Origin: a phage
Assembly (NCBI GenBank): GCA_024674815.1
Contig: GCA_024674815.1_4104.1
Strand: one strand, 5' to 3'
DNA: 64,000 nucleotides
The position numbers and the translations under genes are program-made. Position 1 is the first letter of the stretch. Each line of letters begins with the position of its first letter. Under the pieces are notes generated by a model. That model was not told the DNA's origin. It saw only the letters and a list, made by a program, of their open reading frames with translations, and did not search any database. Shown here piece after piece: positions 4,860 to 61,270 of this stretch.

Positions 4860-5201
4860 TTATTCAAAATCTTCCGGTACTGACTGATAATCATCTTCAC
4901 CGTATGCACTTTCTAACCGCTCGCCAGTGTGATCATCAGTTAGTGAGTCATCCTCATAGTTCACGTCTACGCCAGTGATGTAAAACTGGCTATCGTCTGG
5001 ATCATTGAAATTAATTTTCTGTATGTTTACAATAACTGTATTGATACCCAGGACACTGCCATCAGCCGTTACAAAGTACTGATATTTTTCACAACCGCCT
5101 GAATTGAAACCGTAATTAATTTCGGCCCGACCATCATTTAAACGCAGTGCCTGGGCGATGATTTCATTTTCAAAGTTAGATTGAGCAATTGAGATAGTCA
5201 T
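4860..5201 (-). CDS. acidic hypothetical protein (113 aa)
   Basis: ATG ORF, D/E-rich. Confidence 0.55.
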   Translation of the reverse strand: MTISIAQSNFENEIIAQALRLNDGRAEINYGFNSGGCEKYQYFVTADGSVLGINTVIVNIQKINFNDPDDSQFYITGVDVNYEDDSLTDDHTGERLESAYGEDDYQSVPEDFE

Positions 5202-5221
5202 GATTTGTTTCCTTATTACCA

Positions 5222-5280
5222 GGGGAAACCGTTTCCCCTTTCGATGTAAAACATTATACGCTTATCAGGAAGTAATGCAA
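5222..5280 (-). promoter_or_regulatory. PeSL-like cassette
   Basis: TTGCAT-15-TATAAT; hairpin GGGGAAACGGUUUCCCC. Confidence 0.55.
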
Positions 5281-5283
5281 GTA

Positions 5284-5751
5284 CTATTTCACGTTAATTT
5301 CAAAGTACTGCTCTTTGATGTTTTCCTGTTGGTAAATCTCGTTTAATGCTTTAAGATCTAAAACCTGTTTACCTGCTGCCTGAATATACTTTTTAAGAGT
5401 CGCTAACAGCTTCTCAGGCGTGTTTGTAGTCTTACGTGTTGGGATCTTATCGTGCCCCATAGCGTAGTACTGCTTACGTGCTATAGTACTGATAACACTG
5501 CGGTACGGTTCCATGATCAGCTTGTCTGTGTATTCGTCGCTATCCCCAAACTTCATACCGTGGATCGCAAAGGTCATCATCATGCGGTCGTTATCGCGGA
5601 TATTGTGGGGGCAGTCGGCAAGCTCGCGAGTCAGTGACATAGTGATCCCCACGTCGCCACCCAGCGGTAAAGGTCGGGCGATAAAGAAACCGTTAGGGAA
5701 TACTTTCAGGAAGTTTTCTTGAACTGCTGCGACGAATTCGATGCTATTCAT
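5284..5751 (-). CDS. hypothetical protein (155 aa)
   Basis: ATG ORF. Confidence 0.6.
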   Translation of the reverse strand: MNSIEFVAAVQENFLKVFPNGFFIARPLPLGGDVGITMSLTRELADCPHNIRDNDRMMMTFAIHGMKFGDSDEYTDKLIMEPYRSVISTIARKQYYAMGHDKIPTRKTTNTPEKLLATLKKYIQAAGKQVLDLKALNEIYQQENIKEQYFEINVK

Positions 5752-5771
5752 AATTCATTTCCTTAATTAGT

Positions 5772-5831
5772 GGGGGAAGTTGTTTCCCCTCTCGATGTAA
5801 AACATTATACGCTTATTGAGATAGTTTGCAA
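5772..5831 (-). promoter_or_regulatory. PeSL-like cassette
   Basis: TTGCAA-16-TATAAT; hairpin. Confidence 0.55.
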
Positions 5832-5944
5832 GTACTTTCTACAAATACTTTTAAAATAGTTTTCAGTACTCAAACATTATACAATAGATACACTCCTGCA
5901 CCCTGTGGGCTAGTGAGCTATCTCTCAATGAATATATAATAGCA

Positions 5945-5975
5945 AACTGGCTGACCGAAGTCAACCACTTTTTCA
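5945..5975 (-). terminator. terminator hairpin with UUCG loop, TTGACT -35 embedded
   Basis: GGUUGAC-UUCG-GUCAGCC in minus transcript; TATTAT 17 nt downstream. Confidence 0.5.
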
Positions 5976-6110
5976 TTTATTTTTAGCTTTTAGAATCGCC
6001 GCCTTTCGCGTCATGCCTTGCTTGATGTACTCCTTTACTTTCGCTTTTTTAGCGTTTACCTTGTCTGCTTTCGTTTTAGGAGTACTGTAAATTATACCGT
6101 TAGGATTCAT
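5973..6110 (-). CDS. small basic protein (45 aa)
   Basis: hand-translated ATG ORF, Lys-rich. Confidence 0.3.
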   Translation of the reverse strand: MNPNGIIYSTPKTKADKVNAKKAKVKEYIKQGMTRKAAILKAKNK

Positions 6111-6196
6111 TTAAATCACCATAAAGAATAGATAGGTTACTAACAACGCCGCGATCAATGCACCGACCAGGGCCGAACTATAGTAAGCTAATGATT

Positions 6197-6349
6197 TCAT
6201 TTTTTAGCCTGAAAGTAATGTTTAATTTGAGCGGCGGTCAGTGCACAATTACGCAGGAAGTTTTCTGTATAACTTTTGCGAGTACTGAAAGAGAATTGAC
6301 CTTTGCCGTTACCGATAGTAACATCAAACCGAGCGTTGTATTGTTTCAT
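6197..6349 (-). CDS. small hypothetical protein (50 aa)
   Basis: ATG with AGGAGA SD; track start is an AUG inside the leader hairpin. Confidence 0.4.
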   Translation of the reverse strand: MKQYNARFDVTIGNGKGQFSFSTRKSYTENFLRNCALTAAQIKHYFQAKK

Positions 6350-6367
6350 TTTGATTCTCCTGTTATT

Positions 6368-6427
6368 GGGGAGAATCATTTCTCCCCTTCATGTAAACTA
6401 TTATACAGTACTAAAAACTAATTGCAA
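6368..6427 (-). promoter_or_regulatory. PeSL-like cassette
   Basis: TTGCAA-16-TATAAT; hairpin. Confidence 0.55.
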
Positions 6428-6430
6428 GTA

Positions 6431-6577
6431 TTATTTTTTAGATTTACGTAAACTTTCTACCATCTCAGGAGTAAGCCCCAGCGGGTAGGAAACCACTTCA
6501 TCCACAAAACGCAAAGGGAATACCCCATCTAAAGTTGAACGTGCTTTCTTATTAGTACTCTTTTTTGATGCTTTCAT
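6431..6577 (-). CDS. small hypothetical protein (48 aa)
   Basis: hand-translated ATG ORF; cassette upstream. Confidence 0.4.
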   Translation of the reverse strand: MKASKKSTNKKARSTLDGVFPLRFVDEVVSYPLGLTPEMVESLRKSKK

Positions 6578-6646
6578 TTCATATTCCTTAATTAGTGGGG
6601 AGAACTATTTCTCCACTTCATGTAAACTATTATACAGTACTAAAAA

Positions 6647-6856
6647 CTAATTGCAAGTATTATTTTCTAAAAAATGTTTGTATGCTGAATCAACAACTCT
6701 TTCGATAACATACGCTAACGGCACGTATCCAACTACATGACTACAATAAAAAGGACTACGATTAGAATCATCGTATGCAAATACTTTTTCAGGATCTGCA
6801 TCAATCACATACATATTAACCTTTAAGATGTCGATCTTATCCTGTACAGTAAGCAT
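6647..6856 (-). CDS. hypothetical protein (69 aa)
   Basis: ATG ORF. Confidence 0.5.
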   Translation of the reverse strand: MLTVQDKIDILKVNMYVIDADPEKVFAYDDSNRSPFYCSHVVGYVPLAYVIERVVDSAYKHFLENNTCN

Positions 6857-6861
6857 ATTAA

Positions 6862-7134
6862 TTAACCTTTTAAGTACTGGCTTAAGTAGTCTTTTTGATC
6901 TTCGGTGATTGCAGTCATCTTCCCTAGTACTGGATTAATGATATAATCCCCTGTAACGTCCAGTACAGCATTCTCAGGCTGTTTAACGGCAGGGGTAGCC
7001 ATAGCCATCGCCTGGACTTGTTCGACGCTGTAACGCTCATAAAGGCGGCATTCTTCCGGTGTTAACATAGCATCAATACGTTTCATTGGTTTAATGATGC
7101 TTTCAACTTCATTTAGTACTTGATTAACGTTCAT
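6862..7134 (-). CDS. hypothetical protein (90 aa)
   Basis: ATG ORF. Confidence 0.55.
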   Translation of the reverse strand: MNVNQVLNEVESIIKPMKRIDAMLTPEECRLYERYSVEQVQAMAMATPAVKQPENAVLDVTGDYIINPVLGKMTAITEDQKDYLSQYLKG

Positions 7135-7185
7135 GGTATAATCCCCAATATAAGCGGCCTAAATCGACCACTAACGATGATTTGA

Positions 7186-7455
7186 TCAATAGGTGTATGG
7201 TTGACGCTCAAACAATGATTGCACGTTGTACGCCCCGCTAATGGGCTTAGCTGGCAAATCAATTTTATATTGTTCACGCTTAAAGATAATAAAACGGCAA
7301 TTGTTTTTAACATCAAAATTGATTGAACGTTCCAGGAGTTTACCATCGTGCACAAATACAAGATAACCGCTTGCTACTTGTTTTGTAGTACTGGTTGCAA
7401 CCATAGACCGCCGAACATGTGTACCTGCATCGATTAAAGTACTGATATTTTTCAT
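7186..7455 (-). CDS. hypothetical protein (89 aa)
   Basis: ATG ORF; TTGACA-17-CATAAT promoter at ~7487-7515. Confidence 0.5.
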   Translation of the reverse strand: MKNISTLIDAGTHVRRSMVATSTTKQVASGYLVFVHDGKLLERSINFDVKNNCRFIIFKREQYKIDLPAKPISGAYNVQSLFERQPYTY

Positions 7456-7534
7456 TTTAGTTTCCTTAGTTGTCTTGATAAAATCTATTATGCCAGTACT
7501 ATCAAACTATGTCAATAGTACTGTGATAATATTT

Positions 7535-7678
7535 TTACTTACTTTTTGCTTTCTTGATTGCTTCCACCTGGTCGGCCCATTCTTTACCCCATACTTGTAA
7601 ATTATAATGGTACTGGCAAAGAGCAACGCCCCGCTTTAAACCCGTAATAGATTTCTGACCACATTGACAAGTTTTCAT
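7535..7678 (-). CDS. small Cys-rich protein (47 aa)
   Basis: hand-translated; C-x-C ... C-x2-H pattern. Confidence 0.4.
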   Translation of the reverse strand: MKTCQCGQKSITGLKRGVALCQYHYNLQVWGKEWADQVEAIKKAKSK

Positions 7679-7695
7679 ATTAGTTTCCTTGTAGT

Positions 7696-7756
7696 GGGGA
7701 GAACCATTTTCTCCCCTTGATGTAATGTATTATACTTTATTCGATTTACTTTGCAA
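7696..7756 (-). promoter_or_regulatory. PeSL-like cassette
   Basis: TTGCAA-16-TATAAT; hairpin GGGGAGAAAAUGGUUCUCCCC. Confidence 0.55.
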
Positions 7757-7765
7757 GTACTTTTT

Positions 7766-7993
7766 TTAATTTAATTCATCAAGGCAAAGGATACGCTCAA
7801 CGCCCAAATCAGTTAAACTAATCGACGGCACTTGATAGGTTTCAATGTATGCTACACTTGCCCACTGACCGAACTCATTAACGGCCCAGGTATTCATTGC
7901 ATTTTGCAATTCCGCACCTTCCTTGTTGGTAATGACTGCAACTACTTGTTCGTTGCCAGTAGTACCAGATACGCGAGTAATGATAATAGCCAT
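7766..7993 (-). CDS. hypothetical protein (75 aa)
   Basis: internal ATG downstream of cassette hairpin. Confidence 0.5.
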   Translation of the reverse strand: MAIIITRVSGTTGNEQVVAVITNKEGAELQNAMNTWAVNEFGQWASVAYIETYQVPSISLTDLGVERILCLDELN

Positions 7994-8230
7994 TGTTTTG
8001 ATTCCTTTGATTTGGAAGGAGAACCGTTTCCCCCTCTCGATGTAAAACATTATACGCTAATCTCTTAATCGTGCAAGTACTTTTTATTACTTTTTGCAAA
8101 ATACTTTAAACGCTCTCAATCGCGTTCTTACAGCCTTAACGCCACCAGCTAGGGCAATGCATCAGATAATCAGTTTAATGCGTTAGAATCGTTTCTAGGC
8201 GGTGCTGGTGGCATGGTAAACTATAAACAC

Positions 8231-8256
8231 AAAAAAGCCCACCGTTTAAGGTGGGC
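8231..8256 (-). terminator. intrinsic terminator
   Basis: GCCCACC-uuaaac-GGUGGGC then U6 in minus transcript. Confidence 0.6.
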
Positions 8257-8278
8257 TAGTGATTCAATACTTTAATTG

Positions 8279-8761
8279 TTATGCTTCAACTTTGCGATGA
8301 GCTTCGATCCATTCCTCGCGAGTCATACCGCTTTCTTTGATAGCGTCCAGTACTACCGCAATGCAGTTACCGCGTACAGGAATCAAATGTTCTTCACCGT
8401 TATCAAGTACTACAGTAACACGTTCTTGAATCCATTTTTTAGGTTTAGATTCCGGCTTATCTTCACCGTACTTAACCGCCAGGGCTTTATGTGCCATTTC
8501 AACAACCACTTCCAGATCCAATCCAGACACCGCCGCCTGGATACTTTCAATTGTTGCTTGCAGTTCGGCTTCACGGGCTTTTTTCTGTTCTTCCAGTTCT
8601 GCTACCTTTTTGGCTTGTAATTCTTTCGCTTCACTGTAAGCAATGTTAAAATTGTTGCGTACAGCTTTCATGGTATCGTTATCCAGGTCAGCCAGCAATT
8701 CAGCAGCAATAACAGTATCGTTTGAAATCAGTGCTTTCAGGAATGATTTTACATTAGCCAT
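8279..8761 (-). CDS. hypothetical coiled-coil protein (160 aa)
   Basis: ATG with GAGGA SD; track start is TTG. Confidence 0.6.
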   Translation of the reverse strand: MANVKSFLKALISNDTVIAAELLADLDNDTMKAVRNNFNIAYSEAKELQAKKVAELEEQKKAREAELQATIESIQAAVSGLDLEVVVEMAHKALAVKYGEDKPESKPKKWIQERVTVVLDNGEEHLIPVRGNCIAVVLDAIKESGMTREEWIEAHRKVEA

Positions 8762-8956
8762 TTTATAAATCCTCAATTAAAGTTTAGTTTACGTTTATTA
8801 GTGTATCAAAGTTTTATCGACGTGTCCAGTTTTTCGTTCGACTTACTGGCGGTCTACTTAGTGCTCCCCGTCTTGATGTAATACATTCTACGCCTTTTTG
8901 TGGTAATGTCAACTACTTTTTTAAAACTATTTTTAAAGTATGCAGTACTACAAAAC

Positions 8957-8982
8957 AAAAAAGCCCACTGTTTAAGGTGGGC
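8957..8982 (-). terminator. intrinsic terminator (copy of 8231-8256)
   Basis: same hairpin + U-run. Confidence 0.6.
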
Positions 8983-9000
8983 TAGTGATTCAGTACTATA

Positions 9001-9300
9001 TTATAAACAGTTAATTACTCCGGTGTGCGTTACTTTCTCAGTATCCATAACCGTGACCGATCCACGCTTAGTACTTGCATCATAATAAATTGTTGTGCTA
9101 CCGTTTTCGTCTTCTTCATGGAACGGCCCGTTTTTAAATGCTTCTGGCTGGATCTCTAAATCCTTTAAAACAATCTCGCCTGTACTTTCATTGGTCATCG
9201 CTACCGTGCACTGAATGAATTTTTCACTACTTACATCTAACGACGCATTAACAGCGAAAGAGGAAACAGATAAAGCCAGGGCGATGATTGCAATTTTCAT
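9001..9300 (-). CDS. secreted/periplasmic small protein (99 aa)
   Basis: N-terminal signal-peptide-like MKIAIIALALSVSSFA. Confidence 0.6.
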   Translation of the reverse strand: MKIAIIALALSVSSFAVNASLDVSSEKFIQCTVAMTNESTGEIVLKDLEIQPEAFKNGPFHEEDENGSTTIYYDASTKRGSVTVMDTEKVTHTGVINCL

Positions 9301-9320
9301 TTGATTATCCTTAGTTACCA

Positions 9321-9379
9321 GGGGAAACCGTTTCCCCTTGCGATGTAAAATATTATACAGTACTAAAAACTAATTGCAA
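9321..9379 (-). promoter_or_regulatory. PeSL-like cassette
   Basis: TTGCAA-16-TATAAT; hairpin. Confidence 0.55.
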
Positions 9380-9384
9380 GTACT

Positions 9385-9621
9385 TTATGATTTTTTATAA
9401 AACATTTCGGCAGTGATATTTTTACCCGTTGGTTGTACTTTATCCAGAATTTTTTGATGCCCTGGCCGTCCAAATGAATATGATCCGTAAACCGTAAACC
9501 AGTAGTTACCCTCAGTGTTTACATGTACAGCACAATAGGGAACGCCCCGCGATTCATCACCAATAAAGTGTGATACCGTTCCCGTTACATTAGCAGACGT
9601 TGATTTGATTTGTTCAAGCAT
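9385..9621 (-). CDS. hypothetical protein (78 aa)
   Basis: ATG ORF; cassette 9643-9694. Confidence 0.5.
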   Translation of the reverse strand: MLEQIKSTSANVTGTVSHFIGDESRGVPYCAVHVNTEGNYWFTVYGSYSFGRPGHQKILDKVQPTGKNITAEMFYKKS

Positions 9622-9728
9622 TTTCTTATTCCTTAGTTACCAGGGGAACCGCTCCCCTATGCAAAACATTATACGCGTTTAAAAACTATTAGCAAGTATT
9701 TTAATAAAAAGTATTTGAAAAATAGTTG

Positions 9729-9757
9729 TTGACAAGTGCATCCAGTACTGGCATAAT
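9729..9757 (+). promoter_or_regulatory. plus-strand sigma70-type promoter
   Basis: TTGACA-17-CATAAT on plus strand, no ORF downstream. Confidence 0.5.
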
Positions 9758-9763
9758 TACTAC

Positions 9764-9868
9764 ATCAAGACGAAACAGTCACTAACCCACCGGGTGCCGA
9801 GATCCGTCTATTAAATGATTCAGTACTGAAAAAGTAACGGGGAGTTATTATCTCCCCGCGTTGTTATT
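9764..9868 (+). ncRNA. candidate ~100-nt small RNA
   Basis: promoter 9729-9757, conserved CACUAACCCACCGGGUGC motif, hairpin+U-run terminator 9838-9870. Confidence 0.3.
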
Positions 9869-10085
9869 TGGTAAGGTATAAACAGAAGTCACCTTTATTT
9901 GCTACGCCGCCAGTGTAACGCGATGAATAGTTAGAAATATCTTGTACTTCTGCTATTACCAGTGTATCATCATTCATTTCGTCGCAGAAGCAAACGGCTG
10001 GATCTTTTACGCCGATATTGTCTGCATGTTCCCGCATAGATTTAACCAGTGCTTCCAGTTGAGAAAGAGTAGTGATATTAGCCAT
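9864..10085 (-). CDS. hypothetical protein (73 aa)
   Basis: ATG with GAGGA SD; cassette 10105-10163. Confidence 0.5.
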   Translation of the reverse strand: MANITTLSQLEALVKSMREHADNIGVKDPAVCFCDEMNDDTLVIAEVQDISNYSSRYTGGVANKGDFCLYLTK

Positions 10086-10169
10086 TTTATTTTCCTCATT
10101 ACCAGGGAGAACCATTTCTCCCCTTGATGTAAACTATTATACAGTACTAAAAACTAATTGCAAGTACTT

Positions 10170-10358
10170 TTAATTAAATTCCATAAAATCATTTTCAACG
10201 TGCACAACAATCTGATTATTTTTAAAGGACGCAGAAAACTCTATACAATCATAAACCGCTTTTTCTGTTACCAGACTATGAGCACCAATCGGATTAATTG
10301 GGGATTGAATTGTTTCAATCTCGTTACCTTGTTCATTAACGATTAAAATATTAAACAT
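10170..10358 (-). CDS. hypothetical protein (62 aa)
   Basis: ATG ORF. Confidence 0.45.
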   Translation of the reverse strand: MFNILIVNEQGNEIETIQSPINPIGAHSLVTEKAVYDCIEFSASFKNNQIVVHVENDFMEFN

Positions 10359-10397
10359 TGCCGTTACTCCTGGATAGTGTTAACTCGATATAAAGTA

Positions 10398-10580
10398 TTA
10401 TACGCCTTTATTGCTTAGTGTCCAGTGATCACGCATCATACGCCCCGCACGATCCCAGCTAGTAGGCATGGGTATGCCTTGCAATTCGTTAGGGGAGATC
10501 TCGACCTCGATCCCTACATCAATAACAGTCATTCCAGCTTTCGCAGCTTGCTCGCGGATAACCTCAGATAATGTTGTCAT
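10398..10580 (-). CDS. hypothetical protein (60 aa)
   Basis: ATG ORF. Confidence 0.45.
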   Translation of the reverse strand: MTTLSEVIREQAAKAGMTVIDVGIEVEISPNELQGIPMPTSWDRAGRMMRDHWTLSNKGV

Positions 10581-10654
10581 GATTAAAGCTCCTGGATAGT
10601 GTTAACTCGATATAAAGTATTATACAGTACTGAAAACTAATTGCAAGTACTTTT

Positions 10655-10915
10655 TCAATATTGTTTGTCGTTGTCTTCCTCGATGAATTGACCGACGAAA
10701 TGATCTACTTTCGCTTTGAGGCTTTTATAATCTTCTTCTACTTCCTTTAAACGTTCCTGGTAGTATTCCAGGGCTTGAATATACGCCGCCTCAGCAGTTT
10801 TTGCACGCATAGCTAAATTCATTCCACGCGTTTCATCAAATAGCCAATAACCATCGGTGCAATGACTGATAGATAATGATTTACTTAGTACTGTATAGGC
10901 AATTACTTTACTCAT
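10655..10915 (-). CDS. hypothetical protein (86 aa)
   Basis: ATG ORF. Confidence 0.5.
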   Translation of the reverse strand: MSKVIAYTVLSKSLSISHCTDGYWLFDETRGMNLAMRAKTAEAAYIQALEYYQERLKEVEEDYKSLKAKVDHFVGQFIEEDNDKQY

Positions 10916-10972
10916 TAGATAACCCTCAGTAAAGGCGGGAACTATTACCCGCCATTATCTCAGTACTGAATA

Positions 10973-11212
10973 TTACATTCCAACCATTGCAGCACGGATC
11001 GCAGTAGTGCTATACTTAAAGCCGTCCGGCGTTGTAGTAGTACCGTTGGCTTTTAATCTGCGGTACATACATTCCGCAGCAATATCTTTAGTTCTACTTT
11101 GTGCGATGCAACTTTGAGCAAGCCGATACAATGACTCACCGTTATTAATCCAAAGGCTTACATTCCAATGAGTTTTGTTTTTGTGTCCGTTGTAAGTTTT
11201 AGTACTAGCCAT
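10973..11212 (-). CDS. hypothetical protein, paralog A of 13014-13253 (79 aa)
   Basis: shared GHKNKTHWNVSLWINN and TPDGFKYSTTAIRAAMVGM termini. Confidence 0.55.
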   Translation of the reverse strand: MASTKTYNGHKNKTHWNVSLWINNGESLYRLAQSCIAQSRTKDIAAECMYRRLKANGTTTTPDGFKYSTTAIRAAMVGM

Positions 11213-11230
11213 TTTTAAATCCTCGTTTGA

Positions 11231-11290
11231 GCGGGGAACCACTCCCCGCCTCGATATAAAGTATTATACGCTTTTAAACTTAGTTTGCAA
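11231..11290 (-). promoter_or_regulatory. PeSL-like cassette
   Basis: TTGCAA-16-TATAAT; hairpin GCGGGGAGUGGUUCCCCGC. Confidence 0.55.
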
Positions 11291-11302
11291 GTACTTTTTA
11301 AA

Positions 11303-11914
11303 TTAATATTCGATTGATTCCACTACTCCATCAATAACATTGAATTGATATTCGTTACCCTCAATCAGTGCTGTAATGTTTTCAGTAGTGAATTGATCCT
11401 CATATGCATTCTCTAAATCACGGTACAACTTGCGGGATAATTCACGAATAGTTTCAGTGAGTAGTTCCTCAAGCTCATTAACTAACGTTTCTTGTTTTGC
11501 GGTTAAATCAGTGTAAGCCGATTCAATGTACCCGCTTACAGTATTCTCATGCGAGTAGTGGGAGTGCGAACGCTTTACACTCATCGCCAAATCATCTTCA
11601 TTCAGCAAGTGACGGATTGAGCGATACTTAGTTAATGCTCTTACCTTGCGTAAAAACTTCACTGCGTCAACGTGGTCAGTACTGATTGATGCACCGTCAC
11701 CCTGGGACCAAAAGCCACTGAATCGTAAATCAGCGTCAGTAATGCCATATTCCGGTAGTACTGTTTCTTTATAGTATTCAATTTCACTTTCAGAAAAATA
11801 ATCATCGTTTAAGTTTTTTTCACGTTCCCGAACCAGTTCGATAGCTGACGTTTGTTGTTCTGCGTTCAATTCAGAAAAAGCCATAACATAAGTAGTAGTA
11901 GTGATAGTTTTCAT
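11303..11914 (-). CDS. acidic hypothetical protein (203 aa)
   Basis: ATG ORF, D/E-rich. Confidence 0.6.
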   Translation of the reverse strand: MKTITTTTYVMAFSELNAEQQTSAIELVREREKNLNDDYFSESEIEYYKETVLPEYGITDADLRFSGFWSQGDGASISTDHVDAVKFLRKVRALTKYRSIRHLLNEDDLAMSVKRSHSHYSHENTVSGYIESAYTDLTAKQETLVNELEELLTETIRELSRKLYRDLENAYEDQFTTENITALIEGNEYQFNVIDGVVESIEY

Positions 11915-11984
11915 TTTGTAACCCTCATTCAGTAGTTGATGTAAGTATTATACGCTTTTAAAAACAATTGTCAAACTATTTTAT

Positions 11985-12060
11985 CAGGGGAGTTTTTCGT
12001 GTGCCTTACTCCTGGGCTACTTAATGGGGAGTTACTTATTTCGTTCCCCGTCCTGATGTA
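11985..12060 (-). other. conserved structured leader element (copy 3)
   Basis: near-identical to 1163-1234. Confidence 0.4.
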
Positions 12061-12139
12061 AAACATTATACGCCTTTAAACATAGTTTGCAAGTACTTTT
12101 TAAAAATAGTTTTCTGTACTGAATAGTAAAAAAAAAGTA

Positions 12140-12168
12140 TTGACAGCATTATCAAGTACTGGCATAAT
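12140..12168 (+). promoter_or_regulatory. plus-strand sigma70-type promoter
   Basis: TTGACA-17-CATAAT; conserved motif downstream. Confidence 0.5.
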
Positions 12169-12283
12169 ATACCCCATGACAACAGCTAACCCACCGGGTG
12201 CACAATTGTAACTGTAATAAACTACTTTTTCTATAGATACACTCCCGCACCCTATGGGCTACGGCTTATCTGCCAATGAATAC

Positions 12284-12312
12284 ATTATGCCAGTACTGAC
12301 AAAATAAGTCAA
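12284..12312 (-). promoter_or_regulatory. minus-strand promoter convergent with 12140-12168
   Basis: TTGACT-17-CATAAT; conserved motif downstream. Confidence 0.5.
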
Positions 12313-12342
12313 TACCGGCAATTGTAAAGATTTGTAAACTGC

Positions 12343-12573
12343 TTATACTGCAATCGCGTCCAGGCTGTAATAATAATAAGTGCCGTATTGGTGTACTTTA
12401 TTACCTTTTATTTCAGTACTGAATGAATCCGAACGGTTTGCATATGATGTTAATTTAAAGTACTTTGATTTGCTGATACGTTGCCATACACCACAGATCC
12501 GCTGTAAGTAAGTAGTTTTATTCGTGGTAGTATCTTTTACGGTTTTAACTTCAGTCATATACATATTAGTCAT
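12343..12573 (-). CDS. hypothetical protein (76 aa)
   Basis: ATG ORF; cassette 12595-12653. Confidence 0.5.
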   Translation of the reverse strand: MTNMYMTEVKTVKDTTTNKTTYLQRICGVWQRISKSKYFKLTSYANRSDSFSTEIKGNKVHQYGTYYYYSLDAIAV

Positions 12574-12660
12574 TTTTATTACTCCAGGTTATAGGCGGGA
12601 AGAGTTCCCGCTCTCGATGTAAAACATTATACGCCTTTAAACATAGTTTGCAAGTACTTT

Positions 12661-12927
12661 TTATTCAAGTACTGCAATCTTTTTAGTACGGTACACGGTC
12701 ACGCGGTTGCCCTTTCGGTCGAGCTTTATTTCTACCACTCGACGCGATACACTATCGGGACTTTTTAAGGCCGCTAACCAGTACTGTAATGATCTGGCGG
12801 TACTACGCTTTACAATGGCCCAACGTTTACCACGTTCCGATTGTACGCCCATATCTTTAAACGTTGCCCCGTCCTGGCGAGCGGCGATCCGAGCTTGTTC
12901 ACGCGTCGCAAAATACTTAATATTCAT
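12661..12927 (-). CDS. basic hypothetical protein (88 aa)
   Basis: internal ATG; track start is GTG in promoter. Confidence 0.45.
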   Translation of the reverse strand: MNIKYFATREQARIAARQDGATFKDMGVQSERGKRWAIVKRSTARSLQYWLAALKSPDSVSRRVVEIKLDRKGNRVTVYRTKKIAVLE

Positions 12928-13013
12928 GCTGTTGCCCTTATCGTTGGTGTATGAATAAAACACTATTATAAAGTACTATCGCAAAAAAATGATAGTACTT
13001 TAAATAAATTCTA

Positions 13014-13253
13014 TTACATTCCAACCATCGCCGCACGGATCGCAGTAGTGCTATATTTGAATCCGTCCGGTGTTTTATCTTGTCCAGTCTGTTCTAAAAA
13101 TAACATCATATGACGGGCCGCATCATTGCGATTAGTGCTATCGTTAATAAAGTCCTGGGCCAACCGGTATAATGATTCATCGTTATTAATCCAAAGGCTT
13201 ACATTCCAATGAGTTTTGTTTTTGTGACCTAAGAACATTTTTGATTTAGCCAT
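13014..13253 (-). CDS. hypothetical protein, paralog B of 10973-11212 (79 aa)
   Basis: conserved termini, variable middle; cassette 13273-13330. Confidence 0.55.
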   Translation of the reverse strand: MAKSKMFLGHKNKTHWNVSLWINNDESLYRLAQDFINDSTNRNDAARHMMLFLEQTGQDKTPDGFKYSTTAIRAAMVGM

Positions 13254-13345
13254 TTTTTAATCCTCTTATATAGTGGGGAACTATTCCCCACCTGATGTAA
13301 AACATTATACGCTTTTAAACTTAGTTTGCAAGTACTTTATTAAAC

Positions 13346-13708
13346 TTATTTGTAAATTTTGCCACTGTCAGCCCATACCAGGAAACGAGGCATATTATCC
13401 CATGCATCTTGTTTTAAGTTTAAGCCGTGCAATTCCTCAGTTGTTGCCATCCCTGGTACTGGCTTACTACACACCGCGAAATTTTCGCCCATGTACTGAT
13501 AAACCATCGTTAAATCATTTGAGATCATTACATGGATCATTGAATCAAGCATCAAAGTAGCGGCGTATTGTTCACGCTTAAGCGGCAACATTGCAATAAG
13601 TTCCCGATAAGCTGCAATGTGAATTTTTACAGTTTCAGCCGGAAGACCTTTCATCTCATCGCGGAAGTTTACCAGGTTAAGCATGATTTTATTGATTTGA
13701 GTCGCCAT
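13346..13708 (-). CDS. hypothetical protein (120 aa)
   Basis: internal ATG after cassette hairpin 13733-13749. Confidence 0.55.
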   Translation of the reverse strand: MATQINKIMLNLVNFRDEMKGLPAETVKIHIAAYRELIAMLPLKREQYAATLMLDSMIHVMISNDLTMVYQYMGENFAVCSKPVPGMATTEELHGLNLKQDAWDNMPRFLVWADSGKIYK

Positions 13709-13823
13709 CGTTTTAATCTCTCTTAATGTGTAGCGGGAAGTGTTCCCGCTCTCGATGTAAAACATTATACGCTTTTATCAGTACGGTGCAAGTACTTTCT
13801 ACAAATACTTTTAAAATAGTTTT

Positions 13824-13919
13824 CTTTCTATATAGGAGTACTATTATTCAGTACTGAATCAATCCAGGGGAACTATCTTTCTATATAGGAGTACTATTAT
13901 TCAGTACTGAATCAATCCA
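13824..13919. repeat. 2 x 43-bp direct repeat
   Basis: unit TCTTTCTATATAGGAGTACTATTATTCAGTACTGAATCAATCCA twice, 53-bp period. Confidence 0.6.
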
Positions 13920-14680: not shown

Positions 14681-15708
14681 CAAAATCCATCCAGGGTAAC
14701 TACACCCAAAATCCGTCAGTACTATACCATAGATCTATCTTTTGAAAGGGAGTATTCAGTACTGCCATCATAGCCCTCACTATGTTACCCTAGGAGGATG
14801 AAGACTATCATGTAGTACTGAATACTGTTAGAGGGAATCCACCAGCTTGTGCTGGTGGCATAATGCTTTAGATTAAAATCAGTACTGACACCATTCTGTT
14901 AATATCAGTACTGTTATTACAATTTTCATATGAGGTTCAAAAAGATGTACCACCACAGGAGGAACTATCTTTTCTGTACTGTCTCACGACAGGAGGTAGA
15001 GTAAATGAATTGTTCGCAGCAACTCATCTCTCTATGTAGAACATTATACAGTACTGAATCATAATGTCAATAACTTTCTTTCACCATTCAGTACTGATAT
15101 TCTTGAGAACTACCCGTCTACAAACATCATTATATCCCACAAATCATAAACGTCCCAACGTAAATTTCAACTTTCGAAGATCCAACTTTTATTTCATAGG
15201 TACTCCAAAATTTTTAGGATCGAGATTTAGGATGGAGTACTAACCAACTTTTTGCTGGAGCCTCAAGGGGTAATTGAATTTTACCCCGAAGGGTAAAAGG
15301 GTAATTGTAATTAAGGTGAAAGTAATAATTCAGTACTAATCATTGCGTGATTACTTTTGATTACATTTGATGTAATTTGCAAAATGGAAAAGGAGCTTGG
15401 AAACTACAAAGTACGGCAGACTTCCTCTGCCTACTTAGTGGCATATCAGTACTGAATCATTCACACACATTTCCGTGCATTCTTGAGCAATCTTGTCTAT
15501 ACTAATCAGTACTGAATCATATATAATCATTCTGTGATTCTACGGTGCTCATATAAATGTTTATATATGATTACTTATGACTACCTATGATTACGGGGTT
15601 TAGCCTGGGGAGAATCCTAGTGATCGCATTTGTCCAGGCTGAATTTTAACAATTCGCCTGTACATAAAGGTTGTTCACTAGGAGCTTCCCCTGTCTCTAT
15701 GTGTTTAA

Positions 15709-49029: not shown

Positions 49030-49100
49030 GTTCCGTTGTCATTTATATCGAATGACATAAAACATTATATCATAATAAGAATGGTTGTCCCAAAGTTAAA

Positions 49101-58427: not shown

Positions 58428-59216
58428 TTAAATGTTAGTAGTATAGTACTTGATTTCGTTTTGAATTGCAAGTTCTATTTGTTTATTGAAAAGAATTCCA
58501 AACTCTTTGATTGATTCACAATCGAATTCAATAGAAAAAGTATACTCTGGTACACGTACATTGTCAATACCCAAATACTCTTTTATGTAAATTTTAATGA
58601 GTTCACATAGTGCAGTACTAAGACATTGAATTTCAAAATGTTTTGCACCTTTGTCAAAATACTTGAATGCATCAATATCACCCACAATAAAACTATTCTT
58701 TAATGTAGTGAATAGGTTCTCAGGAAACACGGTAATAGGTGACATTGATTTAAGAATGTATGTATCTTTGGCATTCTTAATGTACTCAATGAAGCAGTAG
58801 TTAACGTCAGGCTCGATTGAACGATCCGCGTTATGATACCAGTGTTTAAACTCACTGTATTCAGCAAACTTATGCTGGCGTAATGCGTTACAATCTTCAC
58901 ACAGTGCAGTCATGTTCTCTTTATCATTACCGCCCTGAAGACAGTCCAGTACATTATGGTCTAACGTCATGCGTACAAGGCGTTTCCCTTTAAGTACATA
59001 AGGTCTGAATTTATAACGATCTTTAGTACTGTGCTTGTGTAAAGTGAATACTACATTAGATTCACCGCAACAATCACATTTAAAGCCATCACGTGACATT
59101 ACATGAATGAGTTTTCGAGTATTTGGACCAAACTCTGATTTGGTAATGTTACCTACAATTTCTGATGGTTGGTAATATTTTGAATTCCGTCGAATCAGTT
59201 CATCTATAGTGCTCAT
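58428..59216 (-). CDS. HNH endonuclease (262 aa)
   Basis: CDCCG...LDHNV...GGND..ENMTALCEDCNALR (HNH motif). Confidence 0.6.
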   Translation of the reverse strand: MSTIDELIRRNSKYYQPSEIVGNITKSEFGPNTRKLIHVMSRDGFKCDCCGESNVVFTLHKHSTKDRYKFRPYVLKGKRLVRMTLDHNVLDCLQGGNDKENMTALCEDCNALRQHKFAEYSEFKHWYHNADRSIEPDVNYCFIEYIKNAKDTYILKSMSPITVFPENLFTTLKNSFIVGDIDAFKYFDKGAKHFEIQCLSTALCELIKIYIKEYLGIDNVRVPEYTFSIEFDCESIKEFGILFNKQIELAIQNEIKYYTTNI

Positions 59217-59217
59217 T

Positions 59218-59448
59218 TTACATTAATCCTTCTATGCTACAACCAATAAGTACTTTTTTCACTTCAATAACTCGTACCAAATAGAATCCATTTGAAAAGT
59301 TAAAACTATACATTTGTACTAAGGCATCTGCTTCAGATTTCGCACGGATACATGATAGATAAATTTCACGTATATCACCATCCAACGATACTTGTTTCTC
59401 TGCATTGATGACAATAGAACGAATCTCAAAACGAACGCCATAACTCAT
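59218..59448 (-). CDS. hypothetical protein (76 aa)
   Basis: ATG ORF. Confidence 0.4.
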   Translation of the reverse strand: MSYGVRFEIRSIVINAEKQVSLDGDIREIYLSCIRAKSEADALVQMYSFNFSNGFYLVRVIEVKKVLIGCSIEGLM

Positions 59449-59654
59449 TGAGTTTGTCCTACAATAAGCTTTGTGTTAGTATTACTATTGTAACACCACA
59501 TTTGTTCTTTACTAACTGTAATCCAAATATCTTTGTTTACTTGTTCGTATGTACTATCACGTACTGCTATGCATTGATTCATGGAATTCATTGGGGTTAT
59601 TTGTACACCGGAATTAACAGAGAAAGCGACTACTAAAAAGATTACTGAATTCAT
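59445..59654 (-). CDS. secreted small protein (69 aa)
   Basis: signal-peptide-like MNSVIFLVVAFSVNSG. Confidence 0.45.
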   Translation of the reverse strand: MNSVIFLVVAFSVNSGVQITPMNSMNQCIAVRDSTYEQVNKDIWITVSKEQMWCYNSNTNTKLIVGQTQ

Positions 59655-59714
59655 TTGATATTCCTTAATGGTTAATCATCCATCTCTTCGAGATGTCTGT
59701 TCGCTTCTAATACT

Positions 59715-59745
59715 ACGTATTCTACGCGAATGATTAATAACTGTC
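59715..59745 (-). promoter_or_regulatory. sigma70-type promoter
   Basis: TTGACA-17-TAGAAT on minus strand. Confidence 0.4.
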
Positions 59746-60271
59746 AAGGACTTTTAATATTGACGGGATTTGAGGAAGGGATTTTTCTTCCCCCCACAAG
59801 GAGGGAAATTTGACGCTGATGGTATCAGAGCTATTGCATTGAAGATTACTCATAAAGAGTGCGAAAGCGGGTCATCCTGTTTCTCTCTACTTCAGTTTCA
59901 TATGACGGTCTACACTTTTAAACATAGTGTATCTTCATTAAGTATCTATGCAATCAAATACTTAATGTGAGTACTCAAATTTTGGACGCAACTTTCCTGT
60001 ACAAAATTCGATAACTCTCCCTTAGATAATTCGTAAGGTGTTATCCTTATATGTCTATCAAGGAACCACCAGCTATCCTAACGTGGTTCTTTATACAGCC
60101 GCATTGCCGTGAGGGGTTCAAACTATGCCCACATCTAACGGGTTTCTTTTGCTGTTCGCACTGTCGGACTGCTCAACTGCCCTCTACGTTTTCGAGTGGA
60201 TCAGGTACATGAATATCATGCCAACAGAATTGTACAAGATAATTATATCACAAACTTTTACTTCATCCCAT

Positions 60272-60297
60272 AAAAAAAGGTTGGCATAAGCCAACCC
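60272..60297 (-). terminator. intrinsic terminator after sigma-factor gene
   Basis: GGUUGGCuuauGCCAACC + U7 in minus transcript. Confidence 0.55.
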
Positions 60298-60304
60298 TTG
60301 TTCT

Positions 60305-61270
60305 TTAGAAATCTTCGTATTCGTACCCTTTTGCAAGTACTAACTTCTTAAGCTTTTGCATAGCTTCACTGTACTTTCGATGTATTGATGAACGGGATTT
60401 AACATATTTTCCATTATCATCAACAAAACCATTATCAGCAATCTCACGAAGCGTTTCAGGTTCATATTCACCTAGACCATGAACACGCTGGATAATCTCA
60501 CGTTCTTTAGTACTCAATTCGTTGGTCAGTTCATTGATAGCATAACGCAAAGGTGCACGGATACTATCAACATTGAGGTTAAAATCAGAAGCAGGTGAAT
60601 GAATAATGTCACCTAATGTACCATCTGTAACACCGTCTAATGGTGCATCCAGCGAAGTGTATTCGCTTTGAAATAACAAACAATTATTAACATGCTGAAT
60701 CTCAATCCCAGTACCCTCTGAGATTATTTCAGGAGTTGGGCGAACACCATGTTTACGCATATATTCCTGACAGAATCTTTTTACTTTGATCTTATGAACA
60801 CTCATATAACGTGGGAAGTGTACCATATAGTTAGCGTCAGAACTTTCGTTATAGACTGTCATGTAAATACTAGAAGAAGCATAGGTAATGAACTTAACAT
60901 TCTTATTAAGATCAAAGGTTTTTAGTGCTCTCATGAACCCCTCAACACCATATGAAATCTTATCTTCAAATGGGATATAACAAGTACATTTACTTGCTAC
61001 ATCAATAATCAGTCCATAATTGTAACGAACTAACAGTTCAGTGTTTTTCTTTACATTGATACCAGCTTGAATATCACGAATTAGATCTTCATTGGAAACA
61101 TTTGGTGGTCGCTTAAGTGTAATATTATATTTGAAACTGCTTTGTACTTTACCTTCATTATCATCTTTATCTTCAACGAAATCTAAGGCTTCTAGTGTGT
61201 TGACTTCTTCATTAGCAAAACATTCATCCAGAACTTCTTCGGCAATTGTATTTAAATCAAGCTTTTTCAC
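60305..61270 (-). CDS. sigma-70 family RNA polymerase sigma factor (321 aa)
   Basis: region 2 (FITYAS...VHFPRYM), 3 (GVRPTPEI), 4 (EREIIQRVHGL...ETLREIA); GTG start with AGGAGA SD. Confidence 0.65.
   Translation of the reverse strand: MKKLDLNTIAEEVLDECFANEEVNTLEALDFVEDKDDNEGKVQSSFKYNITLKRPPNVSNEDLIRDIQAGINVKKNTELLVRYNYGLIIDVASKCTCYIPFEDKISYGVEGFMRALKTFDLNKNVKFITYASSSIYMTVYNESSDANYMVHFPRYMSVHKIKVKRFCQEYMRKHGVRPTPEIISEGTGIEIQHVNNCLLFQSEYTSLDAPLDGVTDGTLGDIIHSPASDFNLNVDSIRAPLRYAINELTNELSTKEREIIQRVHGLGEYEPETLREIADNGFVDDNGKYVKSRSSIHRKYSEAMQKLKKLVLAKGYEYEDF

Follow-up and report, generated by a model that had tools for sequence, protein, structure and literature searches.

A large structured RNA in evenly spaced, co-oriented copies around the genomes of Rak2-like jumbo phages and its possible role as an origin-type element

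Introduction

Large RNAs that combine pseudoknots with invariant loops are few, and most of them have proved to be ribozymes or unusual assemblies; GOLLD and ROOL are often carried by phages. GOLLD, ROOL and OLE, three large ornate RNAs without a known function, assemble into homo-oligomers (PMC12286853). Here we describe a block on the minus strand of a 64,000-nucleotide (nt) stretch of phage DNA (GenBank assembly GCA_024674815.1, contig GCA_024674815.1_4104.1; the whole stretch is called the window below), which is almost certainly the gene for a large structured noncoding RNA (ncRNA) of a previously undescribed family, and we weigh what such an RNA might do.

RNAs that prime DNA synthesis provide a second point of reference. 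At the T4 origins oriF and oriG, middle-promoter transcripts serve as R-loop primers; ColE1 RNA II is a folded primer of ~550 nt which requires contact between G-rich RNA and C-rich DNA; and in mitochondria the G-run of CSBII makes the primer 3' end. Phage CBB, one of the jumbo phages that carry the RNA described here, has a T4-like replication core and a promoter class common to its DNA-synthesis genes (PMC5259590). The present RNA family is absent from Rfam 15 and from the literature searched, and it is well supported by covariation. Its regular, co-oriented, position-specific copies around a giant phage genome have no described parallel, and neither has a downstream repeat that is kept identical, copy by copy, to the RNA's own 3' end.

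Results

The block lies between a sigma-factor gene and the next downstream open reading frame (ORF; Table 1). An initial sequence-only reading of the window had singled it out as free of credible ORFs, richer in GC than its surroundings, without recognisable tRNA features, and bounded by the terminator of the sigma-factor gene and by a promoter at the far end; a structured ncRNA or an acquired element had been offered as explanations. Both boundary signals were recovered. Only mechanical ORFs of 50-66 amino acids (aa) separate the sigma-factor gene from the next ORF, none of these has a PHROG match, and ARAGORN finds neither tRNA nor tmRNA in the block. In a composition check, 59756-60241 had 40.7% G+C and the window as a whole 35.5%, which puts the block at the 94th percentile of 480-nt windows, a real but modest enrichment. 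By blastn, 59600-60350 is 100% identical to Escherichia phages vB_EcoM_E9.1 (PP886230.1) and JP4 and 98-99.7% identical to 121Q, PBECO4, phAPEC6 and others; the source phage and these near-identical coliphages are Rak2-like jumbo myoviruses of ~350 kb, genus Asteriusvirus.

A sensitive blastn search of phage records found the block in 62 of them, at 66-100% identity and in 3-5 places per record, the host genera being Escherichia, Salmonella, Erwinia, Yersinia, Serratia, Pectobacterium, Cronobacter, Klebsiella and Xanthomonas. Records from distant genera retain 66-75% identity over ~440 nt, and in the matching records the element occupies gaps of ~600 nt devoid of coding sequences. Conservation at 66-75% across phages of nine host genera, combined with variable stems that covary, is well beyond chance. 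Relatives were added from the whole unannotated ECO103 4-12-1 genome and from IMG/VR, which was scanned with two conserved motifs. An nhmmer profile then identified exactly four copies in the ECO103 coliphage genome, 4-5 per complete genome, and, in all, 62 distinct near-full-length copies, among them divergent ones from Klebsiella phage RaK2; the 64-kb window holds no second copy. The two-motif metagenome scan returned only 26 stretches, several on contigs of jumbo-phage size. Among 120 loci matched by a 16-base degenerate motif in species-representative bacterial genomes, one was a real copy and the rest were chance matches; this copy (L244:2742-3429, 275 bits) could be phage DNA in a bacterial assembly. 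Two copies in RaK2 (L078:1960-2420 and L135:4595-5040) share an identical RNA 3' half and more than 400 nt of identical downstream flank and differ in their 5' halves, which points to a recent duplication or gene conversion.

The Infernal scan that the sequence-only reading had proposed as a check matched no Rfam family to the block: none of the 4227 models of Rfam 15 was found anywhere in the window at gathering thresholds, 59600-60350 gave only terminator-like or chance hits at E <= 10 (12-20 bits against thresholds of 37-88), and in six diverse homologues no hit at E <= 1 overlapped the element. We take this set to include group I and group II introns, RNase P, tmRNA, 6S, GOLLD, ROOL, OLE and HEARO. 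A published description of the element was likewise not found in the literature searched. GenBank records annotate it as a bare 'repeat_region' (ON568341.1), as small hypothetical proteins or, in most cases, not at all; PP886230.1 and PQ330092.1 place 4-5 'hypothetical proteins' across the RNA gene (window 59750-60240), which is probably over-annotation.

Base-pair covariation among the copies is strong. Seven distant copies, once aligned, already show invariant blocks with stems between them in which both sides vary. On a plain MAFFT alignment, and without any structure input, average-product-corrected mutual information ranks Watson-Crick covarying pairs at the top; stacked, these pairs form antiparallel helices, and two long-range pairings emerge among them. 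Because RNAalifold recovered the structure only in part from the raw MAFFT alignment, the helices were worked out from mutual information with additions by hand, and the resulting 83 pairs in 15 helices were placed on an alignment (A2) of 61 copies from phages of Escherichia, Salmonella, Yersinia, Serratia, Erwinia, Pectobacterium, Cronobacter and Klebsiella. Standard pairs fill 94.4% of the 4791 cells, compared with 39.5-43.3% when the partners are slid by 1-3 columns; shuffles averaged 76.0% paired, and 0 of 500 reached the observed value. Changes on both sides are seen at 62 of the 83 pairs (21-29 when slid), double changes in 837 cells (91-123 when slid), and the covariation score is 0.475 (0.07-0.10 when slid). 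The fold comprises 14 or more helices and two well-supported pseudoknots, and its loops and junctions are near-invariant. Frequent G.U pairs (for instance, 41 U.G at one pair and 36 G.U at another) identify the window minus strand as the RNA strand, because on the other strand they would be A.C mismatches. By minimum free energy, the z-scores (-1.5 on the minus strand, -1.9 on the plus strand) are weak and too alike to tell the strands apart, and thermodynamics alone would have missed this RNA. The sequence-only reading had held that a missing transcript together with a missing covariance-supported structure would speak against an ncRNA; the structure is there, and its proposal of a structured ncRNA is borne out by strong covariation, by the pseudoknots, by a promoter of the RNA's own and by an intrinsic terminator in about half of the copies.

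The support extends along the whole molecule (Table 1). Both strands change in 8/8 and 7/8 pairs of helices 1 and 2 in the H1 region, and the one stem that had been quoted from the window (GAACCACC...GGTGGTTC, plus strand 60063-60089) turned out to be helix H3, with compensatory changes at all six pairs across the 61 homologues. Helices 12-14 (H9, H10 and H11) are 98-100% paired, 11 of their 13 pairs being compensatory. PK1 was found de novo by mutual information. In PK2, the 5' strand GUCAU directly follows an invariant GACC, and one of its pairs is UA in 31 copies and CG in 28. A further pseudoknot between the H4a loop and a downstream segment has partial support, as a run of at least six complementary bases is available in 48% of copies and in 15% of shuffles. 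An optional hairpin, whose 17-nt loop is conserved, sits at one or the other of two sites depending on the copy, a behaviour that would be typical of peripheral tertiary elements. RNase P RNA was also considered and rejected: the H10-loop ACAGnnCAACCCGCUU resembles its P4 region (GGAAAGUCC ... ACAGNRAACCCGGCUUA) only loosely and without a model match, and this segment pairs with GUUGY (PK2), not with a P4-like partner.

Table 1. Features of the RNA gene, its downstream module and its surroundings (window coordinates; paired segments are given 5' to 3' on the minus strand)
Feature	Position	Strand	Remarks
Core structured RNA, predicted start to end of R1	59810-60235	minus	nhmmer copies, covariation, no Rfam match
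RNA gene promoter, TGGGA-N18-TATAAT	60270-60242	minus	-10 at 60247-60242; extended -10 TG 60250-60249
Helix H1	60227-60220 with 60167-60161 (span 60161-60227)	minus	encloses variable hairpin and H1b
Hairpin H1b	60204-60177	minus	conserved loop GAAAAnGUA
Helix H2	60155-60151 with 60099-60095 (span 60095-60155)	minus	100% paired, 4/5 pairs compensatory
Inner helix H2a, plus H2b	H2a 60141-60138 with 60110-60107	minus	H2a 100% paired
Internal loop inside H2	within 60095-60155	minus	near-invariant A(A/G)A(A/U)GAAAC // CAAUGCG
Hairpin H3	60089-60084 with 60068-60063	minus	6/6 pairs with both-side changes, 3-5 pair types each
Hairpin H4a	60049-60046 with 60037-60034 (domain 59969-60049)	minus	helix 8 of the pair count
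Invariant UAAGGGAG	within 59969-60049	minus	alignment
Tentative pseudoknot, H4a loop	with 60016-60011	minus	partial support only
Helix GAGU/ACUC	60017-60014 with 59972-59969	minus	encloses optional hairpin, conserved loop UACAnnAnAGnUnCGUC
Hairpin H6	59967-59956 with 59947-59936	minus	11/12 pairs compensatory; loop 59953-59948 is the PK1 5' strand
Pseudoknot PK1	UUGCAU 59953-59948 with AUGCAA 59839-59834	minus	100% paired, 5/6 compensatory
Pseudoknot PK2	GUCAU 59906-59902 with AUGAC 59875-59871 in the H10 loop	minus	100% paired, 3/5 compensatory
Helix H9 (3' domain 59840-59894)	59894-59890 with 59844-59840	minus	
Helix H10	59887-59883 with 59867-59863	minus	loop AAACAGnnnnACCCG
Helix H11	59860-59858 with 59850-59848	minus	
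Repeat R1 (CCAUCAGCGUCAA), last 13 nt of conserved core	59822-59810	minus	consensus C-Y-A-Y-C-A-N-Y-G-U-C-A-R
C-rich/G-rich hairpin	59785-59808; 5' arm 59807-59800, 3' arm 59795-59788	minus	96% paired
Invariant G-run motif GGGGGGA(A/U)GAA	59795-59785	minus	3' arm of the hairpin
Repeat R2 (CAAAUCCCGUCAA), direct repeat of R1 core	59772-59760	minus	consensus C-A-A-A-Y-C-N-Y-G-U-C-A-R
Sigma-factor gene	60305-61270	minus	Pfam Sigma70 r2, r3, r4
Intrinsic terminator of sigma-factor gene; boundary of RNA unit	60299-60276	minus	10 pairs and U-run
Sigma-70 promoter of downstream genes; boundary, outside conserved unit	59747-59719	minus	TTGACA-17-TAGAAT, 11/12 matches
Next ORF downstream of RNA gene	59445-59654	minus	ORF list

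A promoter of the form TG(A/G)(A/G)A(C/T)-N17/18-TATAAT, usually with an extended -10 TG, lies upstream of 62/62 copies. Transcription of the window copy is predicted to start near 60235, yielding an RNA of ~426 nt to R1 or of ~476 nt if it runs through R2. The promoter pattern occurs three times in the window, always on the minus strand, against 0.6 expected; the other two sites, both TGGGAC-N18-TATAAT, are found at 15129-15157 and 49064-49092 on that strand. The promoter of the RNA gene is of the same class as the promoters of CBB and GAP32 with a TGAAACG -35. This 'divergent RpoD-like' class, with TGAAACG in place of TTGACA, has been reported for both phages, and in CBB 11 of its 18 members lie upstream of ORFs 258-329, a region with many DNA-synthesis genes (PMC5259590).

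About half of the copies, the window copy not among them, have an intrinsic terminator directly after the conserved core (R1), and in one lineage R1 contributes its GUCAG as the 5' arm of the terminator stem. Several paralogue lineages (L019, L009, L012, L016, L005, L037 and others) also bear a strong hairpin and U-run within 40-60 nt of the -10 box, ahead of the conserved RNA start, which may be a 5' protective hairpin, an attenuator, or the terminator of the upstream gene overlapped by the promoter. For Rak2-like enterobacterial phages, our literature search found no RNA-seq. RNA-seq-defined ncRNAs, among them the highly transcribed ncRNA001 and ncRNA002, have been reported for the related Pseudomonas phage PA5oct (PMC7318152). 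These two (MK797984.1 8263-8498 and 21951-22401; L139), to which the comparison was confined, gave no match to our RNA family with nhmmer --max and may represent a separate class of jumbo-phage ncRNA.

Each RNA core is followed, sometimes after the terminator, by the G-run hairpin and then by R2, which is 13 nt long. The invariant GGGGGG lies 20-25 nt upstream of R2 in 61/61 copies, and in a 352-kb genome the G-run and R2 occur only beside its four RNA copies. The hairpin varies solely by C<->U exchanges opposite invariant G, with no compensatory change, a pattern that fits an RNA hairpin on the minus strand. The ~40 nt after R2 are 77-78% A+T, compared with 63-70% beyond, a small enrichment in a genome of 64.5% A+T.

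R1 and R2 agree with each other within each copy. The first Y (T/C) matches in 59/59 copies, the second Y (C/T) also in 59/59, with T/T arising in two independent lineages, and the final purine (G/A) in 55/59. Copies L028 and L066 are 95.8% identical, with 21 differences in 500 positions, and two of these 21 are a coupled R1/R2 pair; L017 and L003 likewise show the same substitution in both repeats, and in RaK2 three homologous positions have changed together (R1 CTACGAGCTTCAAG, R2 CAAACGCCTTCAAG). Because differing variants coexist within one genome, the match is set per copy and not by a genome-wide protein specificity. A fixed difference between R1 and R2 (an extra A and different 5' parts) is present in all lineages. 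Neither mutual information nor RNAduplex gave a consistent partner site for R1 or R2 inside the RNA, and the recurring GAUGAG junction, tried as such a partner, fails for the window copy. The identity of R1 and R2 in each copy would be most simply explained if the RNA 3' end pairs with the strand complementary to R2.

Within any one complete genome, the copies share a single strand, which in ECO103 and in CBB is also the strand of nearly all genes (for CBB, PMC5259590). The source phage has four copies and most relatives have five, with gaps that span 44-112 kb across the complete genomes: 62/80/84/78/74 kb in CBB (the last ~52 kb without the 22-kb terminal repeat), 64/79/84/79/53 kb in GAP32, 69/81/86/74/44 kb in Yen9-04, and 102/55/79/112 kb between the four copies of 121Q. 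Five uncultured genomes are similarly spaced, and ECO103 carries its four copies at 18, 128, 208 and 262 kb. For five random points on a circle, a minimum gap of at least 16% of the circle has a probability of ~0.001 by our own formula. Clusters of similar copies follow genome position across genera, which makes the 4-5 copies old, position-specific paralogues. The genes that flank them are complete and are not the same from copy to copy; no protein is common to the neighbourhoods of four paralogues, and no conserved protein partner adjoins the copies (Pfam on the neighbours of five copies; ORF neighbourhoods of four paralogues). One conserved paralogue (the copy in L034) sits between convergent genes. 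GC skew follows gene strand and transcription, without a feature or strand switch at the copies. An acquired element, the other explanation offered by the sequence-only reading, found no support, as none of the 62 related phage records lacks the block, its copies group according to genome position, and no mobility gene accompanies it.

As for the surroundings, the promoter that bounds the unit downstream is not conserved at other RNA copies. Further downstream, a 262-aa ORF (58428-59216, minus strand) has a CxxC ... DH ... N ... CxxC spacing that looks HNH- or zinc-finger-nuclease-like by eye; Pfam gives no hit for it, and it does not resemble the 264-aa ORF adjoining the BF copy. Elsewhere, at 5200-13900 of the window, an intergenic module of 55-100 nt recurs at least 15 times between many small genes. 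On the minus strand, this module consists of a G/C hairpin (GGGGAGAA...TTCTCCCC) followed by TTGCAA-N17-(G)TATAAT, and it looks like a repeated terminator-plus-early-promoter cassette.

Discussion

What does such an RNA do? The reading that we tentatively favour, without holding it to be probable, is that the RNA unit is a cis-acting, origin-type element, whose RNA would open or prime DNA at R2, either as a primer or by way of an R-loop; this function we infer from sequence features. Action in cis is suggested by the regular spacing, the single orientation, the position-specific paralogues and the strictly linked downstream DNA/RNA module. An origin-type role is favoured because of the R1/R2 identity, the G-run, the promoter class of DNA-synthesis genes, and the fit to a T4-like replisome. 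In this model, RNA polymerase would start at a TGGGAY/TGAAAC-type promoter, of the class that also precedes DNA-synthesis genes in CBB, and produce the folded RNA, whereupon the R1 tail and/or G-rich read-through RNA would pair with the template strand at R2, beside the G/C-rich hairpin and the A+T-rich stretch. The stable RNA-DNA hybrid would open the duplex and so provide a primer or a helicase-loading site for the T4-like replisome, and several such units, spaced evenly and pointing the same way, would divide the 350-kb genome into similarly sized replicons. In its most specific form, which we regard as doubtful, the model would have Rak2-like phages divide their ~350-kb chromosome into 4-5 replicons, each started by a structured 'origin RNA' with R1 guiding it to the R2 template strand. 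By a possible extension, the folded core could be a ribozyme or a protein-recruiting platform that processes its own 3' end into a primer.

Several points weigh against an origin. Transcription, R-loops and initiation at the RNA loci are all predictions from sequence, and we know of no phage R-loop origin that needs an elaborate RNA fold; pseudoknots and invariant loops would be more typical of ribozymes or of ribonucleoprotein or RNA-only assemblies. With a terminator between R1 and R2 in about half of the copies, the G-run and R2 may often stay untranscribed; such a terminator would fit a processed primer that invades at R2, at the cost of an extra assumption. The one-sided C<->U variation of the hairpin suggests, in addition, a module that functions as RNA. 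Furthermore, GC skew tracks transcription and shows no feature at the copies, the A+T enrichment after R2 is small, and the even spacing amounts to effectively one evolutionary observation, since the genomes are syntenic.

On balance unlikely, though a serious contender, is an ornate RNA that acts in trans: a stable particle, RNA-only or bound to phage or host protein and possibly a hetero-oligomer of the 4-5 paralogues, which would work away from its gene as a scaffold, decoy, ribozyme or packaging/assembly RNA, like GOLLD, ROOL or phi29 pRNA, with the downstream module as a 3' processing or stability element. Such a role would explain the elaborate fold better than an origin does, given that the size, the pseudoknots and the near-invariant unpaired nucleotides resemble those of ribozymes and ornate RNAs, that the optional 17-nt-loop hairpin moves between two insertion points as peripheral tertiary-contact elements do, and that PK1 sequences differ among the four paralogues of one genome. 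A diffusible RNA, however, needs no regular spacing, no single orientation and no position-specific paralogues kept across genera; it leaves the per-copy R1 = R2 identity unexplained, and no Rfam ornate-RNA model matches. The same identity is also left unexplained by a cis-acting transcription element, an alternative we consider improbable, in which the nascent RNA would modify its own polymerase (processive antitermination, as with HK022 put or EAR RNAs) so as to read through the terminator and the co-directional genes, or would form a giant sensing leader. The succession of own promoter, RNA, terminator in about half of the copies and co-directional genes at most loci would suit this role, as would the GUCAG of R1 that, like an expression platform, forms the 5' terminator arm in one lineage, the single orientation and regular spacing of the copies in a genome whose transcription runs almost wholly one way, and the lack of a terminator before the next genes at the window copy. 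Yet the paralogue between convergent genes has no co-directional gene on which it could act, a strong and separate promoter comes after the unit in the window as well as in BF-type copies, and known antitermination RNAs measure 70-120 nt.

Far less probable still is a relic or non-autonomous mobile or self-splicing element, be it an IS200/IS605-like end (a hairpin with a TCAA-type cleavage site) with a guide RNA, a group I/II intron derivative, or an insertion with R1/R2 as target-site duplication. Direct repeats do flank a hairpin-containing segment, and the ...UCAA/UCAG ends presumably resemble IS608-type cleavage sites. But the neighbours of five copies examined with Pfam include no transposase, TnpB/IscB, reverse transcriptase or homing-endonuclease family, and the absence of tnpB, iscB and tnpA families there also led us to reject an omega-RNA or HEARO of the IS200/IS605 type. 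Neighbours differ between copies, which are positional orthologues and not scattered insertions, and among the 62 records we saw neither empty sites in close relatives nor copies at non-homologous positions; the fixed R1-R2 difference in all lineages means that the repeats are not fresh duplications. The group I, group II and HEARO models give no match at E <= 10, and the intergenic element has no exons to join; a group I intron is ruled out, as its own promoter lies directly upstream in 62/62 copies and the flanking genes are complete. That the block instead encodes small proteins, as some depositors annotate (four to five in E9.1 and JP4), is scarcely credible: mechanical ORFs of 50-66 aa exist, but most other records annotate nothing, PHROG gives no match, homologues differ by many 1-2-nt indels and by whole stems, and the substitution pattern is one of base-pair compensation and not codon-like.

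Should the units be origins, they would account for the way in which T4-related jumbo phages begin to replicate 350 kb and would add an RNA-guided, cis-addressed mode of origin firing unlike any described origin. If the RNA instead acts in trans, it would be a new class of ornate RNA in culturable coliphages with easy genetics. A practical consequence is that several GenBank records carry spurious 'hypothetical proteins' over the RNA genes.

How, then, does the family compare with described systems? With GOLLD, ROOL and OLE it shares a length of several hundred nt, many helices and pseudoknots, conserved unpaired nucleotides, a phage location, the lack of an adjacent dedicated protein, and an unknown function. 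In contrast to them, it is shorter and gives no sequence or structure match (Rfam cmscan), and it consists of 4-5 diverged, evenly spaced, co-oriented paralogues tied to a G-run and repeat module; to our knowledge, neither such spaced paralogues nor such a module has been described for GOLLD, ROOL or OLE. Another comparison is offered by the HK022 put and EAR RNAs, which are, as the present RNA may be, cis-acting structured RNAs just after a promoter and before terminators in a co-directional gene array. The present RNA is four to six times larger, one of its paralogues lacks a downstream co-directional gene, and no model matches.

Closer to the role that we tentatively favour, an origin-type element, are ColE1 RNA II and the T4 origins. 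ColE1 RNA II is also a folded RNA of several hundred nt with its own promoter, aimed at a fixed DNA site, with G-rich RNA facing C-rich template near its 3' end, and in both cases the RNA fold would decide whether the hybrid forms. The two are not homologous; here, dispersed copies (five) are distributed over a phage genome, and the R1/R2 repeat is without counterpart. The T4 origins oriF(uvsY) and oriG(34) would share with the present loci, if these are origins, the presence of several per genome, a T4-related replication system and a non-early promoter class common to DNA-synthesis genes, and the proposal for their transcript is that it stays in place as an R-loop across an A+T-rich region, where it primes the leading strand. 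The replisome homologues and the promoter class on which this comparison draws are those reported for CBB (PMC5259590). Whereas the T4 origins are mutually unrelated and their transcripts have no known conserved structure, the loci described here would each produce a 430-nt pseudoknotted RNA that is conserved across genera, next to DNA with a weak A+T enrichment.

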